Assembly (NCBI GenBank): GCA_000004695.1
Contig: CM000154.2
Coordinates: forward strand, 3,840,001-3,904,000
DNA length: 64,000 bases
DNA from: Dictyostelium discoideum
Taxonomy: Eukaryota
Reading direction: 5' to 3'
This document shows, in pieces, positions 4,931 through 19,007 of the stretch (position 1 is its first letter; each line of letters opens with the position of its first letter). The notes beneath the pieces were generated by a model. It was given only the letters and a program-made list of their open reading frames with translations, did not search any database and was not told the origin of the DNA. The position numbers were made by a program, and so were the translations under genes.

Positions 4931-5620
4931 ATTTTTAAAAATGTATGTGTAGGGCGAAAAAATAAAAATAAAAATAAAAATAATTTGTTAGTGTAAAAGA
5001 AATCGTATGAAGCCAGGCTCAAATCCAAACCTTTTAAAAATTCAATCTTTTTTTTTTTAATTTTTTAATTTTTTTTAATTTTTTTTTTTATTTTTTGTTT
5101 TTTTTGTTTTTTTTTTTTATACAATTTTTGACAATTACCAGTCAAATTAAACAAAAAAATTTTCCGTGGAAGTATGTGTCGCTTTATTATAAACAAATAA
5201 TACTGGGATTGAAAAATTTACGTTAATAAATAGAAAAAACAATCAAAATAAACGGTTAATTTTTTTTTTTTTTTTAAAAAAGATATTTTTAAACTTCAAT
5301 AATATCAGATCAAAAAACTTCTTCTTTTTCGAAATGTTTGATTTGATTTGATTTATTTACGTTCTCAAGAATGTTTCGCTTAGTTATCAATTTATATTTA
5401 TAGAGCCATAATATAATAATAATAATGCAAAAAAATATTCACAGTAAAATTGAAAAAGCAATTTTTATTTTTATTTTTTTTTCCACAAGAAATTTTTTTT
5501 TTTTTTTTTAAAGAATTTAAATTGTACAAAAACCTTCATTGGTAGAGCCACGCTTTTCAATCACTTTTATATAATAAAAAAATTGAACTCGAGCAGATTT
5601 CAACTAAACAACATCAACAT

Positions 5621-5693
5621 GTCGGGTTGGCTCAGTTGGTAGAGCGTAGGTCTCATAATCCTAAGGTCCAGAGTTCGATCCTCTGACTCGACA
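5621..5693 (+). tRNA. tRNA-Met (anticodon CAU), elongator type, 73 nt, no intron
   Basis: GTCGGGT acceptor stem pairs with ACTCGAC. D-arm is GCTCAGTTGGTAGAGC. The anticodon loop CTCATAA gives anticodon CAT. T-arm is CAGAGTTCGATCCTCTG, and the discriminator is A. The sequence closely resembles eukaryotic elongator tRNA-Met. Confidence 0.9.
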
Positions 5694-5726
5694 ATTATTT
5701 TTTCAATAATACTCCTTTAAGATCAA

Positions 5727-10327: not shown

Positions 10328-13714
<3,387 letters not shown>

Positions 13715-13978
13715 CTTTTAGTATTACTATTAATATTATTAAAATAATATTACAAAAAAAGAAAATAAATAAATAAATAAATAAATATATATGAATATAT
13801 ATTACTTTGGAAAAAGATAAAAAAAAAAAAAAAAAAACCAAAACGCTGTCTCGCAAAATTAAAAAAAAAAAAAAAAAATTTAAAAAAAAAATCTATTTTT
13901 TTTTTTTTTTTTTTTTTAAATTATTGCTCATATTTTTACCAATTTTATAAAAATAAAAATAATTATTTTATTATTAAA
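13715..13978. promoter_or_regulatory. Putative bidirectional promoter between divergently oriented EFR3 (minus) and the Nudix gene (plus)
   Basis: 264-bp AT-rich spacer between two ATGs on opposite strands. This is inference only. Confidence 0.35.
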
Positions 13979-15303
13979 ATGATTAAATCACCAATTAAAG
14001 TTAAATTATCATCAACAGTCATAGTTTTATTAAAATGGGGAGTTGATAAATTACCAAAATCAATTAATAAGAAACCATTAAAAAATTATGATTATAGAGT
14101 AATGTTAGTTAAAAGATCAAATCAAATTAAATTCTTTCCATCAGCACATGTTTTTCCAGGTGGTGCAGTTGATGAAAATGATAATTCTAAAGAATGGGAA
14201 CAAGTTATTGAAAAACCAATACCATCAAATCTTTCAATTAGAATTAGTGCATTAAGAGAAATCTTTGAAGAAACTAATTTCTTTTTGGACAAGAATGAAA
14301 AATTAATAAATGATAAAAATAAACCAATAATTGAAAAACTTCAAAGTGATTTAATGAATAAAGAAACTTCAAAAACTAATAACTTTTTATTAAATTTCAT
14401 TAAAGATAGTGGTATTAAATTAAAACTTGACCAACTATATCAATGGGCAAGGTTTGTTATCTTAAAATATACATATATATATATATTTTCTAAACACTTT
14501 TGACATATTAACAATTTTAATTTTTTTTTATTTAATTTTTTTTTATTTTTAATAATATCCTTTTATGTCTAAATAATAATATTAAAATAAAAAAAATAAA
14601 AAATTATCAATTTAATTTTTTAATTTTTTATTTTTTATTTTTTATTTTTATAAACTTTATTTTAATATAAAAATAAAAAATATATAGATGGATAACACCA
14701 ATATTAGGACCAAAACAAACTCATAGATTTGATACATATTTTTATGTTATTCCAATTTATCAATATCCTGAATCATGTAAAATTGATGGTACAGAAAATG
14801 TTGAAATGGATTGGCTTTCACCTGAAGAAGCATTAGAAGAACATAGAATCGGTAAAATTAGTTTACCACCACCAACTTGGTTTACATTTCATCAACTTTC
14901 AAAATGTCATACTATCGATCAAGTTATTGAATTAGCTAAAGAAAGAGACTCTTTAGATATTTTATATGATCCAATAATGACAAAACCAACAATACCTTCA
15001 AATGCATCAACAAATTTACCACAAGAAAGATATCAAGTTTTATCTGGTGACTATATTTATGAACAAGAAAAACAAAAACAACAACAACAACAACAATCTT
15101 CTGATTCTTCAACAAATCCAAATTCAAATTCAAATCCAAATCCAAATCTAAATCCAAGTCATAAAAATAGAATTATAACACGTAGTAGAATTGGCGATTT
15201 AAATGATCAATTCTCTTGGATTTATGAATATCAAAATAATATTCCTGGCTCGGTTGATAGTCAAATTGATGGTGCCAATACAATTTTACCACCAAAACTT
15301 TAA
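13979..15303 (+). CDS. NUDT19-like Nudix hydrolase (putative peroxisomal CoA diphosphatase), 2 exons: 13979-14451, 14688-15303
   Basis: Nudix box 'FPGGAVDENDNSKEWEQ...ISALREIFEETNFFL' resembles NUDT19 (FPGG...RE.FEE). The second exon 'RWITPILGPKQTHRFDTYFYVIP...WLSPEEALEEHRIGKISLPPPT' is in frame after a GTTTGT donor and TATATAG acceptor. Confidence 0.7.
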
Positions 15304-15504
15304 AAAAAAAAAAAAAAAAAAAAGACACAAATCAAAAACCACCCTATCTTTTATTATTAATAATTATAATTAAGAGAATCACCATCCCCAAAAAAACACA
15401 TTGGAAATATATATATTATATGGATGACAGCATCCAAACAATATTTATAAAATAATAATAATATATTATTTCAATTAAGAAAAAAAAAAAAAAAAAAAAA
15501 AAAA

Positions 15505-15857
15505 CTATCACCCAAATTAATTCTTTCAAATAATAAAATAAAATAAAATTTATATATTACAGAATTTTAAATTAATTTATTTTTAAATTTCCAGTTTCTT
15601 TATCAGCACAAGAATAAATTTTGAAGTGATCCAACATAAATTAAATGATAATGTTCAGCTATTTTTTTTTTTTTTTTTTTTATTAAATATATTAAATAAT
15701 TAGTATACATTTTTGTTTTTGTTTTAATTAAAAAAATAAAAATAAAATACACTTACCAACAGTAACAATTTATGTCTAAAATGTAATAAACCAAAATCAT
15801 AATTAAAAATTCCTCTACCCATGAATAATGGCGGTGAAATACCAGTTAGATATTTCA
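15505..15857 (-). pseudogene. Degenerate partial duplicate of the DGAT2 3' region (exon 3 remnant with ~70-bp deletion, intron 2, last ~90 bp of exon 2), same orientation as dgat2
   Basis: Strong nucleotide similarity of 15505-15857 to 16647-17095. Examples are 'aaataaaataaaatttatatattaca', 'ccagtttctttatcagcacaag' and 'aaatacacttaccaacagtaac...ccaaaatcataattaaaaattcctctacccatgaataatgg'. The coding frame is not retained. Confidence 0.65.
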
Positions 15858-16011
15858 AATTAATTGTTCTGGTGCTATTTCAAGTGCCACTTCAAATGTT
15901 AAACATTCTCTTAAGGGATGTGATAGTTGTGCACAATACCCAATACCCATGCAACATAATACATAGATTCAGCACTATTTTTTGGAGTTGGAAGACCATT
16001 GGTTTAAAAAA

Positions 16012-16253
16012 GGGTCCTAATCCATTGCCTCTTAGGATATACTAATTACAGTGAACAACCATCCAACCATGAACAAAAATGCTTATTATGCAATAATGGC
16101 CTTTGTGAAAACGTTAAAGCGGCACTTTAAGATTTGTTGCCACTTTAACGTTTTCTAGAAGACCATAATTGTACAATAAGCCGTTTAATTCTTGATTAGA
16201 TGGTGGTTCAATGTAATTAGAATTTCTAAGGAGCCATGGATTAGAACCCTAGG
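16012..16253. mobile_element. Candidate foldback/MITE-like element: ~44-bp imperfect terminal inverted repeats flanking a GC-richer core with a central 17-bp hairpin
   Basis: Left TIR 16012-16056 'GGGTCCTAATCCATTGCCTCTTAGGATATACTAATTACAGTGAAC'. The reverse complement of 16204-16253 is 'GGGTTCTAATCCATGGCTCCTTAGAAATTCTAATTACATTGAAC', about 84% identical. The internal hairpin has arm 16107-16125 (gaaaacgttaaagcggcac) pairing with 16139-16155. The GC content is far above the surrounding intergenic DNA. Confidence 0.4.
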
Positions 16254-16407
16254 GTTTTATTTTTTTTATTGATGAAATAATTAACATATATAATATCACA
16301 AAAAAAAAAAAAAAAAAATCCGGATTGCCTGTTATATATATTTAATAAATACAAAGGATAGTTATTTCCTGATTTATTTAATATTTTGGTTAATAATTTA
16401 AAAATAA

Positions 16408-16438
<31 letters not shown>

Positions 16439-16719
16439 ATCTTTTATATAGTTTTATAAAAAGTGTCTAAAAAAATATAAAATTGGTGTCTGTCACAATT
16501 TAATTTAATTTTTTTTCAATTTAAAATTATTTCTAATTAATACCAAACAAAAAAAAAAAAAATATCAAAAAAAAAAAAAAAATTAAATAATAAAATATCA
16601 AGATCCCAACCAAAAAATAATAATAATAATAATAATAATAAATAATCATCCAAGTTAATTCTTCCAAATAATAAAATAAAATAAAATAAAATTTATATAT
16701 TACAAATTTTTAAATTAAT

Positions 16720-16875
16720 TTAATTTATTTTTAAATTTCCAGTTTCTTTATCAGCACAAGAATTTTTGTGTTTGTCAAATAAATTTTGAAGTGCTTCAAC
16801 ATAAATTTGATGATAATGTTCAATAACTTGATCAGTAGGTGATTTAATCTTTGGTATATCAATTGGTTCGCCAAC

Positions 16876-16921
<46 letters not shown>

Positions 16922-17913
16922 ATTAGTATATACATTTTTGTTTTTGTTTTTGTTTTTGTTTTTGTTATTATATTTTAAATAAATAATATAAAATACACTT
17001 ACCAACAGTAACGATTTTATGTCTAACTGGTAATAAACCAAAATCATAATTAAAAATTCCTCTACCCATGAATAATGGTGGTGCGATACCAGTTAGATCT
17101 TTGATTTTAGTTTGAATCTTTCTAACTAATGAACCACGTGGATTTGGTACTTGATCATAGATATCATTTTCACCAAATGAATAAACTGGTACTAATGATG
17201 CACCATTTACCAATGCTAATTTAATGAAACCTTTTCTCTTTTTCAATGTAATTTCATTAAGCCCAGGACGGGCGTCTAGTGATTCCTCTGCTCCACCAAC
17301 TACCAAACAAATTGATTCACCAGCTCCTGAATTTAAAATATTTTCACAACTTTTCTTTGAAACTGATGACATACCAAAACTCATTAAAACATCTCTTAAA
17401 AATGGTATCTTAAAAAAAAAAAAAAAAAAATTTATTAATTAGTACTCTCTCTCCCTCTCTAAAATAAATTATAATACATACTTTAAAATTTGATTCTAAT
17501 GTTAATAAATGTACTTTTAAACCAGGTAATTTTTCGTCAATATTATTAGCATTTGTAGCGAAATTACAAAAAGCACCAATACTAATGATACCATGTGGAT
17601 GATAGGCAAAGATGTAATTCTTTTTTGGATCATAATTTGAATTGATAATTAAAGAGATTGGGAAATAATCTCTAAAGTAACGCCACAGTATTGAATTTCT
17701 AACTAAACTTACACGTCTACCACCACTTTCATGTTTTGTATCGAAATAAAACATCCAAACTAAATAAGGTATTGCAATACCCCAAAACAATGGTATCACT
17801 ATTAAATTGAATGCCATTATTAAACATACTGGTAATACCATTGCATAAATTGCAACTGCCATAGTTTCTAACCTTCTATATAATGGAACATTCCATGGTA
17901 CAAACCTAACCAT
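16720..17913 (-). CDS. dgat2: Diacylglycerol O-acyltransferase 2 (DGAT2/MGAT family), 3 exons: 17482-17913, 17003-17408, 16720-16874 (330 aa)
   Basis: HPHG motif ('AYHPHGIISIGAFCNF'). 'VVGGAEESLDARPGLNEITLKKRKGFIKLALVNGASLVPVYSFGEN' and 'VVGEPIDIPKIKSPTDQVIEHYHQIYVEALQNLFDKHK' are near-collinear with human DGAT2. Donors are GTATGT/GTAAGT and phases are consistent. Confidence 0.85.

Positions 17914-18233: not shown

Positions 18234-19007
<774 letters not shown>

Follow-up and report, generated by a model that had tools for sequence, protein, structure and literature searches.

Related systems

Several described systems come close to the locus reported here: unprocessed partial pseudogenes made by small tandem (segmental) duplication, rearrangements of the FoSTeS/MMBIR or fold-back-priming type, foldback or MITE-like transposons including thug-S, and the young long-hairpin miRNA "modules" of dictyostelids such as dfi-mir-1190. 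Junction inserts in classical MMBIR are usually templated from nearby sequence. Among the transposons, the Tdd, DDT and thug DNA transposons together account for 1.5% of the Dictyostelium genome (PMC5633606). Unusually long, well-paired hairpins mark young miRNAs, the dfi-mir-1190 precursor being 238 nt in length with a folding energy of -142.8 kcal/mol, and the spacers that hold some D. discoideum miRNA loci have much shorter counterparts in D. firmibasis (Edelbroek 2024, PMC11014262). The start sites of pri-miRNAs carry a motif made of an oligo-T tract and then a G (Liao 2018).

Our locus is the spacer between two convergent genes, dgat2 and a gene for a NUDIX-domain protein, in a 64-kb stretch of Dictyostelium discoideum DNA that we call the window. 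It holds a second copy of the dgat2 tail (D'), and between D' and the copy that belongs to the gene (D) there is an insert (X), part of which is a long palindrome. D' resembles an unprocessed tandem-duplication pseudogene in that it keeps intron 2 and the 3' flank, is truncated at its 5' end, has frame-destroying deletions, lies beside its parent and decays in a strain-specific way. It differs in that D and D' do not abut but are parted by ~0.7 kb of non-local DNA with a palindrome in it.

The likeness to FoSTeS/MMBIR and fold-back priming lies in a duplication whose junction carries an insert, an inverted duplication around a 13-nt spacer, one arm contiguous with a flank of the same composition, a homopolymer breakpoint, and arms that were near-identical at birth. 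The difference is that we found no nearby template for the inserted and inverted DNA, and ~20% divergence hides the microhomologies at switch points. With foldback and MITE transposons, including thug-S, the palindrome shares a short AT/GC-mixed sequence, nearly all of it in two long inverted arms, and a lineage-specific presence, but it has no target-site duplication, no element-sized empty site, no second copy (64-kb window and eight loci) and no match to thug-S miRNAs. Like the young miRNA modules, it belongs to an intergenic, lineage-specific insertion that enlarges a spacer, and its hairpin of ~240 nt has a comparable energy; unlike them, it is absent from published lists, shows no sign of constraint and has no small RNAs known from it.

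A duplicated dgat2 tail

We compared eight genomes over 21-kb syntenic loci (L001-L008), of which L002 is identical to the window. The two genes and the parts of the duplication are as follows, in window positions and with the strand where one applies.

16720-17913, minus strand: dgat2 (diacylglycerol O-acyltransferase 2), functional gene, from its spliced CDS, Pfam match and cluster membership
13978-15303, plus strand: gene for a NUDIX-domain protein of 362 aa (Pfam PF00293), convergent neighbour, given for context only
16615-17104, minus strand: D, the copy of the duplicated segment still joined to the rest of dgat2, from alignment to D' and to the single-copy orthologues in L007, L001 and L008
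15508-15857, minus strand: D', truncated, intron-containing (unprocessed) dgat2 pseudogene fragment, from alignment to D
15483-15507: homopolymer tract of A on the plus strand (T when read in the direction of the gene) that forms the distal end of the duplicated unit; D/D' homology stops here in multi-species alignments
15858-15899: proximal junction zone with weak residual similarity along the D/D' diagonal, from ungapped identity

The exons of dgat2 (17913-17482, 17408-17003 and 16874-16720 on the minus strand) splice into a CDS for a 330-aa protein, which matches Pfam PF03982 and shares a 90%-identity cluster with Dgat2 of D. discoideum AX4 (Q54GC1). The NUDIX protein matches PF00293 with E = 1.1e-4 and 22.6 bits (cutoff 21.1 bits), and all eight loci compared have a called gene in the syntenic position. 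An Rfam search of the whole window gave a tRNA-Met as its sole match.

The 3' end of dgat2 has undergone tandem duplication over some 0.4-0.5 kb, from the end of exon 2 to the oligo-T tract ~100 nt past the stop codon. In D, intron 2 and exon 3 are preceded by the end of exon 2 and followed by ~105 nt of 3' flank, and the homology of D to the ancestral flank ends within an oligo-T/ATT tract. D' begins within exon 2, of which it has the last ~100 nt, and runs through intron 2 and exon 3 into, likewise, ~105 nt of flank; exon 1 and the greater part of exon 2 are missing from it, and it lies adjacent to its parent in the same orientation. With blastn, 15447-15855 aligns with 16582-17102 at E = 1.4e-72. 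A preliminary description of the window had reported a degenerate partial copy of dgat2 (exon 3, intron 2 and the end of exon 2) some 800 bp 3' of the gene, and this was correct: a MAFFT alignment of 15505-15857 with 16643-17104 gives 89.5% identity over 353 ungapped nt, and the nearest end of D' is 863 bp past the dgat2 stop codon. The copy does not, as was also proposed there, end exactly where the GC-rich segment begins. Clear homology stops at ~15857 and is followed by ~110-150 bp of unrelated sequence with 34% GC. Along the D/D' diagonal the ungapped identity is 80-100% inside D' and 50% over 15860-15899, against a background of 28% +/- 7%.

Relative to D, D' has seven deletions that add up to 109 nt, including 17 nt and 58 nt within exon 3. 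The deletions differ from strain to strain and are independent. Retention of intron and flank, adjacency, orientation, disablement and absence of constraint all mark D' as an unprocessed partial pseudogene. D' runs on collinearly into the ancestral spacer and NUDIX gene, and D into the rest of dgat2; in L007, L001, L008 and L003 the stretch that matches window positions 15855-15200 is contiguous with an intact dgat2. Throughout, dgat2 itself stayed intact, with copy D still fused to it.

The insert and its palindrome

The insert X is ~0.7 kb in total and lies between D and D'. Its parts are listed below.

15866-16010: X1, unique segment with 34% GC that runs into the left palindrome arm; no significant similarity found
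16011-16124: left palindrome arm (arm B), putative template arm, from inverted symmetry; its role is suggested by contiguity with X1 and by composition
16125-16137: central spacer or loop of the palindrome, 13 nt, from a repeat search with which the folds agree
16138-16250: right palindrome arm (arm A), putative fold-back copy, from its match to the reverse-complemented left arm
16262-16340: micro-inversion that abuts the palindrome, in the window/AX4 haplotype only, from a reverse-orientation match to L004, L005 and L006
16345-16614: X2, AT-rich rest of the junction insert between D and the palindrome, only in insertion-bearing haplotypes

From 16011 to 16250 there is one continuous, imperfect palindrome with arms of ~114 nt, a loop of 13 nt and ~80% of positions paired; blastn finds the self-reverse match at E = 1e-42. 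In the other strains the arms are ~135 nt, which gives an overall palindrome length of 240-270 bp. Identity between the right arm and the reverse-complemented left arm is 77.9% in this genome; in the other haplotypes it is 77-83%. The GC content of the palindrome is higher than that of the surrounding spacer.

The preliminary description had seen ~44-bp inverted repeats with a hairpin between them and took the segment for a foldback structure. The inverted symmetry is real and does not fall to background, and the folding bears out the foldback; the repeats and the hairpin are not separate features, being the outer and inner parts of the one palindrome. In the same way the 17-bp stem reported at 16107-16155 is there but is not perfect: a run of 13 perfect bp is followed by a single C.A mismatch, which is G.U on the minus strand, and then by another 3 bp.

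As RNA, the plus strand folds at -106.3 kcal/mol (z = -13.2) and the minus strand at -121.7 kcal/mol (z = -15.9), and in neither case did any of 200 dinucleotide shuffles fold as well. Per nucleotide, over ~246 nt, this is -0.43 (plus) and -0.49 (minus) kcal/mol, on the stable side of the -0.2 kcal/mol/nt used for precursors. Folding is strong in all four haplotypes that carry the structure (z = -13 to -16).

Beside the palindrome, the window has a T19-GTGAT on the minus strand (16318-16295) which matches L004, L005 and L006 in reverse orientation only. The micro-inversion strips the outermost ~18 bp of pairing that those three loci have kept. X2 is missing from L007, L001, L008 and L003.

We searched for the origin of the insert in several ways. 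Neither the rest of dgat2 nor the 64-kb window nor the eight loci contain anything significantly similar to X1. A six-frame query of the insert against 5.8 billion proteins gave no match at E <= 10, and in an Rfam search over 15300-16700 nothing came near the gathering score of any family. No second copy of the palindrome or of X was found in the window or the eight 21-kb syntenic loci, about 230 kb of Dictyostelium sequence and thus a search of low power. A scan of metagenomes with a conserved 17-mer returned 120+ matches, all of them chance matches of <=27 nt.

The rest of dgat2 was considered as a source of 15856-16253 and rejected, as local alignments on both strands scored no better than shuffles; a tblastx match to dgat2 exon 1 (27.6 bits) had no DNA-level support. 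One arm and the reconstructed ancestral arm contain an apparent open frame of 37-42 codons, which raised the idea of a coding origin for the insert or arms; this idea was dropped when no protein matched. By our estimate, one of the six frames would hold an open frame this long by chance in ~20% of cases.

Distribution across eight genomes

The structure is present in L002, L004, L005 and L006, which are three D. discoideum haplotypes and one 'cf. discoideum'. It is absent from L007, a sister 'cf. discoideum', and from L001, L008 and L003 (D. citrinum, D. dimigraforme and D. firmibasis). Read in the direction of dgat2, the carriers have the gene with D, then X (~0.7 kb), D', the ancestral spacer and the NUDIX gene. 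The spacer from dgat2 to the NUDIX gene measures 1348-1552 bp in the four carriers and 240-399 bp in the four non-carriers, so that what non-carriers are without is ~1.1-1.2 kb, made up of X and one dgat2 tail, and not a unit of 240-270 bp. The carriers form a clade with at least 96.3% identity in the neighbouring EFR3-like gene, and L007 is its sister at 95%. The rearrangement dates to the ancestor that D. discoideum sensu stricto shares with one 'cf. discoideum' lineage.

Age and decay

Among the carrier haplotypes, arm A and arm B have 1 fixed difference in 110 ungapped columns, with arm A of L006 often showing the arm-B state, and D and D' have 1 fixed difference in 185 columns. These counts indicate that the palindrome was near-perfect originally and that both features arose just before the carriers diverged. 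On sequence comparison, then, the palindrome is about as old as the duplication.

The arm-to-arm identity of 77-83% is close to the identity of orthologous arms between the window and L006 (80-83%). Identity of arms within a genome is slightly above that across genomes (0.80 vs 0.78 overall, and 0.826 vs ~0.77 for L006), an excess that we estimate at ~1.3 SD. When the window is compared with L006, the ancestral spacer has an identity of 0.92, D' of 0.90 and the arms of 0.73-0.80; the rate at which the arms change equals or exceeds that of the neutral DNA beside them. RNAalifold gave an unfavourable covariation term of +5.06, with double-sided changes in 4 of 103 pairs and many pairs broken, and we found no net covariation or stem-maintaining constraint in the four haplotypes. 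The higher within-genome arm identity and the 4 double-sided pair changes leave room for weak co-evolution of the arms. Counts of G.U against A.C mismatches (8:3, 7:4, 6:4 and 4:5) gave no significant RNA strand signal. A test for AT-biased decay of the arms was ambiguous, since polarisation by consensus is unreliable with shared ancestry.

Instability near the palindrome continues. The window/AX4 haplotype has its micro-inversion, the centre of the palindrome has been remodelled in L006, and there are deletions elsewhere. Going by evolutionary rates only, everything except D has probably decayed neutrally since the event and kept rearranging, and no function need be invoked.

Origin of the structure

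We believe that one complex rearrangement, or two events that followed each other very closely, probably combined a tandem duplication with a junction filler containing a fold-back, and that the locus is the resulting scar, now a neutral relic. The likely process is repair of a replication fork or double-strand break in which the template was switched, as in FoSTeS/MMBIR or fold-back priming. One breakpoint lies within the homopolymer tract, and ~0.7 kb of foreign filler DNA (X) would have been set at the D/D' junction. Within the filler, a GC-richer fragment of ~265 bp may have been partly copied back on itself, with fold-back or template-switch synthesis over the 13-nt turn producing a near-perfect palindrome of ~2 x 135 bp. 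D stayed with the gene, and D' turned into the truncated unprocessed pseudogene.

Several features fit a fold-back: the arms were near-identical at origin, the spacer is 13 nt, and the left arm is contiguous with X1, which would be the flank of its source. X was presumably captured from elsewhere as filler, having no match in the window, the eight loci, the protein database or Rfam. A template locus for the fold-back was not found in the available sequence (window, eight loci and proteins), and the junctions are too diverged to read.

Alternative explanations

Transposon. The palindrome, or the whole of X, might be a non-autonomous DNA transposon copy of the foldback or MITE-like kind, from an uncharacterised Dictyostelium family or one related to thug or DDT, inserted at or beside a fresh tandem duplication of the dgat2 tail. 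We consider this unlikely. It is a weakened form of the earlier proposal that insertion or excision of a small DNA element had mobilised the flanking dgat2 sequence. That proposal is not supported, as the empty sites are without the whole ~1.2 kb and four haplotypes have no target-site duplication. Moreover, the whole ~0.7 kb insert lies between the two dgat2 tails; this is the geometry of a tandem duplication with an insert at its junction and not that of a captured flank.

For the weaker form, a foldback of 240-270 bp with arms near-identical at birth is what such an element would look like, inverted termini included, as the whole of it is two inverted arms. It is also GC-richer than the surrounding spacer, is not derived from local sequence and has a lineage-specific pattern of presence and absence, in an organism with poorly characterised DNA transposon families. 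Against this, the ends of the palindrome have no target-site duplication in any of four haplotypes, as the preliminary description had foreseen might be found against its own reading: the flanks in L004 read ...GGTTAT / ATTGG...CCAAT / GGTCTT..., and no direct repeat of 2-10 bp is present there or in L005, L006 and the window. What the empty sites are without is X plus one dgat2 tail instead of an element-sized unit, no second copy was seen in the ~230 kb of Dictyostelium sequence (low power), and a six-frame protein query shows no transposase-like coding remnant. The birth date of the palindrome is also that of the duplication, which would be a coincidence if the events were independent. A relationship to thug-S was looked for with miRNA_can_D3-5p and -3p as its proxy, and neither matches the palindrome within 4 edits. 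Local alignment against the thug-S-derived miRNA sequences stayed at the shuffle background in 5 of 6 tests; a partial resemblance to miRNA_can_D3-5p was also at background level and was set aside.

Hairpin RNA. It is rather improbable that the palindrome is now a young hairpin-RNA locus, either a proto-miRNA or an endogenous hairpin-siRNA diced by DrnB/RbdB. Such a locus would be akin to the lineage-specific dictyostelid miRNA modules and would be transcribed by read-through from dgat2 or the NUDIX gene, or from an oligo-T/G start site of its own. The length and energy of the hairpin are within the range of accepted dictyostelid precursors, and all four haplotypes still fold strongly. There is also a T19-G motif ~45 nt upstream on the minus strand (16318-16299) which resembles the pri-miRNA start-site motif (Liao 2018). 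It has this orientation only in the window/AX4 haplotype, and such motifs are common, with 13 in the window. The arms are without purifying selection or net covariation, and no target was identified, the arms having no similarity to dgat2 or any protein.

Nor is the locus among published D. discoideum miRNAs or candidates, and its sequence matches none of them (Meier 2016, Liao 2018, Edelbroek 2024). The sequences in Table S1 of Liao 2018 and Table 2 of Meier 2016 do not match the hairpin within 3-4 edits, its 10-mers are absent from the supplements of Edelbroek 2024, and its 15-16-mers gave no match in a full-text search of the literature. On chromosome 5, the 2024 set has mir-1176 and mir-1177 only (Edelbroek 2024, PMC11014262).

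A reading that joins this one to our preferred explanation is speculative, and we would not expect it to be right. A one-step rearrangement would have made a near-perfect hairpin with a ~135-bp stem between convergent genes, and this would now be a lineage-specific source of hairpin RNA (proto-miRNA or hairpin-siRNA) that was missed through strict criteria for miRNA precision. If it were true, the locus would be a dated, polymorphic case, seen in four diverged alleles against four outgroups with empty sites, of the birth of a miRNA module from a repair-generated fold-back duplication, an origin that differs from inverted duplication of target genes and from transposons.

Chance or artefact. 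We give practically no credence to the idea that the duplication and inverted symmetry are due to chance in AT-rich DNA or to an assembly artefact: AT-rich low-complexity sequence does yield many spurious blastn matches in the window, but the key matches reach E = 1e-42 and 1e-72 within sequence of 25-35% GC, 0/200 dinucleotide shuffles fold as well, and, against an artefact, the structure recurs in five independent assemblies with arms that have diverged among them.

Significance

The finding is a modest one. An odd, enlarged spacer beside dgat2 is explained as a neutral rearrangement scar, and the transposon reading of it is corrected. As a natural example it is well dated, since eight genomes bracket the event and the palindrome was near-perfect at birth. 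Its later history is legible over four alleles, in the ~20% divergence of the arms, the remodelled centre, the micro-inversion and the deletions, which makes the locus useful for studies of palindrome instability. It also bears on how lineage-specific hairpin and miRNA loci originate in Dictyostelia, a question raised by Edelbroek et al. 2024 (PMC11014262).

Comparison of the locus in eight genomes

We took the syntenic locus from eight genomes through the members of the Dgat2 cluster, and the spacer between dgat2 and the convergent NUDIX-domain gene falls into two size classes. It is 1348-1552 bp in four carriers (the D. discoideum assemblies L002, L004 and L005, and L006 from a D. cf. discoideum), with L002 100% identical to the window, and 240-399 bp in L007 (the other D. 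cf. discoideum), L001 (D. citrinum), L008 (D. dimigraforme) and L003 (D. firmibasis). The carriers are at least 96.3% identical in a neighboring EFR3-like gene and form one clade with L007 (95%) as sister, which points to a single gain, and we regard a single origin as demonstrated. In the insertion-free species, the stretch corresponding to 15855-15200 of the window is directly continuous with an intact dgat2 3' end. This fixes the order, in the sense of the gene, as dgat2 with its duplicated tail (D), an insert (X), a truncated second copy (D'), the ancestral spacer and the NUDIX gene. About 0.4-0.5 kb of the dgat2 tail has thus been duplicated in tandem, with an insert at the junction, and the distal breakpoint falls within an oligo-T tract.

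Features of the dgat2-NUDIX region.
16720-17913, minus strand: dgat2, three exons, 330-aa product
17104 to ~16615, gene sense: D, part of dgat2
~16614 to ~15858, gene sense: X insert, about 0.7 kb
15857 to 15508, gene sense: D', followed by the ancestral spacer and the NUDIX gene
13978-15303, plus strand: NUDIX-domain gene, convergent on dgat2

In the window, D' and a palindrome lie in the 1417 bp between the two stop codons. The dgat2 protein has a DAGAT domain and shares a 90%-identity cluster with D. discoideum AX4 Dgat2 (Q54GC1). Directly upstream of dgat2 is an ORF (18234-19007, minus strand) whose very long N-terminus is rich in Asn/Lys homopolymers and whose C-terminal part is Cys-rich. 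Across the 64 kb of the window, Rfam and ARAGORN identify only a tRNA-Met (CAT) at 5620-5694 (+), which is ~10 kb from the spacer and a possible TRE retrotransposon target.

The partial dgat2 copy

The preliminary description reported a partial dgat2 copy, and this copy is real: blastn matches 15447-15855 to 16582-17102 (E = 1.4e-72), and 15505-15857 aligned to 16643-17104 with MAFFT has 89.5% identity over 353 ungapped positions. Relative to its parent, D' has seven deletions totaling 109 nt, including ones of 17 nt and 58 nt within exon 3. Because intron 2 is kept, the duplication occurred at the DNA level and D' is an unprocessed pseudogene fragment. The copy had also been said to end exactly at the GC-rich segment. 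Instead, clear homology ends at ~15857 and is followed by X1 (15866-16010), unrelated sequence of 34% GC.

Past ~15857 on the same diagonal, ungapped identity is 50% over 15860-15899 (~40 nt) and then drops to background (28% +/- 7%); this stretch may have diverged much faster, or come from error-prone synthesis at the junction. The locus is also unstable locally. Strain-specific deletions occur in D' and X1 (window equivalents 15762-15929; D' regions of L004, L005 and L006), and L005 is without ~170 bp across the X1/D' junction (L005:12006-12029). The 17-nt deletion is common to the window, L004 and L005 and is not in L006. L006 has an additional ~200 bp separating the 3' flank of dgat2 from the AT-rich portion of the insert (L006:11285-11470).

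The palindrome

The inverted symmetry noted earlier also holds, with 16011-16250 matching itself in reverse complement (blastn, E = 1e-42). What had been read as separate 44-bp TIRs and a 17-bp hairpin are the outside and the core of a single unbroken, imperfect palindrome, an inverted duplication whose arms (B, 16011-16124; A, 16138-16250) a repeat search places 13 nt apart. Folded as RNA, it reaches -106.3 kcal/mol (z = -13.2) for the plus strand and -121.7 kcal/mol (z = -15.9) for the minus strand. Chance similarity or an assembly artefact is excluded by the blastn E-values, the fold z-scores and recurrence across the carrier assemblies.

L004, L005 and L006 have a longer palindrome of about 2 x 135 bp. 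A derived micro-inversion at ~16262-16340, adjoining the palindrome, has cost the window/AX4 haplotype the outermost ~18 bp of pairing. In L006 (palindrome L006:11846-12113) the center at ~11970-12000 is remodelled, with a new CACCAA...TTGGTG stem.

For dating we aligned eight arms (two from each of four haplotypes). Arms A and B have 1 fixed difference in 110 ungapped columns, and the remaining 56 columns that vary are polymorphic from one haplotype to another, with L006 arm A often keeping the arm-B state. At the start of carrier divergence, then, the palindrome was in essence perfect. Compared in the same way, D and D' have 1 fixed difference in 185 columns, so duplication and palindrome are contemporaneous within resolution.

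Origin and fate of the rearrangement

The region carries the scar of a complex, lineage-specific rearrangement, made up of a partial unprocessed dgat2 pseudogene and a decaying fold-back palindrome, and we settle on a template switch during repair or replication as its most likely origin. Duplication, junction filler and palindrome would have arisen in one event, with fold-back priming or template switching making the palindrome and X probably brought in from elsewhere. Since the left arm is continuous with X1 and of the same composition, we infer that 15866-16130 is one captured fragment and the right arm its fold-back copy. The stretch 15866-16262 matched nothing else in the window or the eight loci and did not resemble the remainder of dgat2. 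A six-frame query with the insert gave no protein homologs at E <= 10, Rfam gave nothing convincing, and a metagenome scan with an insert 17-mer gave chance matches only.

The mobilization of dgat2 sequence by a foldback or MITE-like transposon, as originally proposed, is unsupported in that form, and we consider such an element an unlikely origin: there is no TSD, neither an element-sized empty site nor a coding remnant was found, and there is no relation to thug-S-derived miRNAs.

A functional, unrecognized young hairpin-RNA or miRNA locus is more doubtful still. The size and energy of the hairpin are like those of accepted dictyostelid precursors, and dictyostelid miRNA loci are reported to be gained as modules inserted into enlarged spacers (Edelbroek et al. 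2024, PMC11014262). Two minus-strand tracts of oligo-T (at least 15 nt) followed by G, at 16299-16318 (T19-G) and 16566-16582, lie within the insert, upstream of the hairpin in the dgat2 sense, and are similar to the motif that marks pri-miRNA start sites in Liao 2018. The whole window has 13 such instances, and the T19-G is correctly oriented only in the window/AX4 haplotype: the minus-strand T19-GTGAT of the window is ATCAC-A(n) in L004:11540-11625, L005:11530-11672 and L006:11750-11850. Against this reading, the locus is not in the published miRNA lists (Meier 2016, Liao 2018, Edelbroek 2024), and its arms are without sign of constraint.

The two arms of a genome are as alike (77-83% identity) as orthologous arms between the deepest carriers (80-83%), and the excess of within-genome over cross-genome arm identity is slight, at about 1.3 SD by our own estimate. 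Between the window and L006, identity is 0.73-0.80 in the arms, 0.90 in D', 0.84 in X2 (AT-rich, 16345-16614) and 0.92 in the ancestral spacer. The RNAalifold covariation term is unfavorable (+5.06), both sides have changed in only 4 of 103 pairs, and G.U versus A.C mismatch counts had no strand preference. As judged from these comparisons, an initially perfect inverted duplication that has since been decaying neutrally fits the arm rates, covariation and mismatch data together. The locus is valuable chiefly as a case in which the birth and decay of a palindrome are precisely bracketed.
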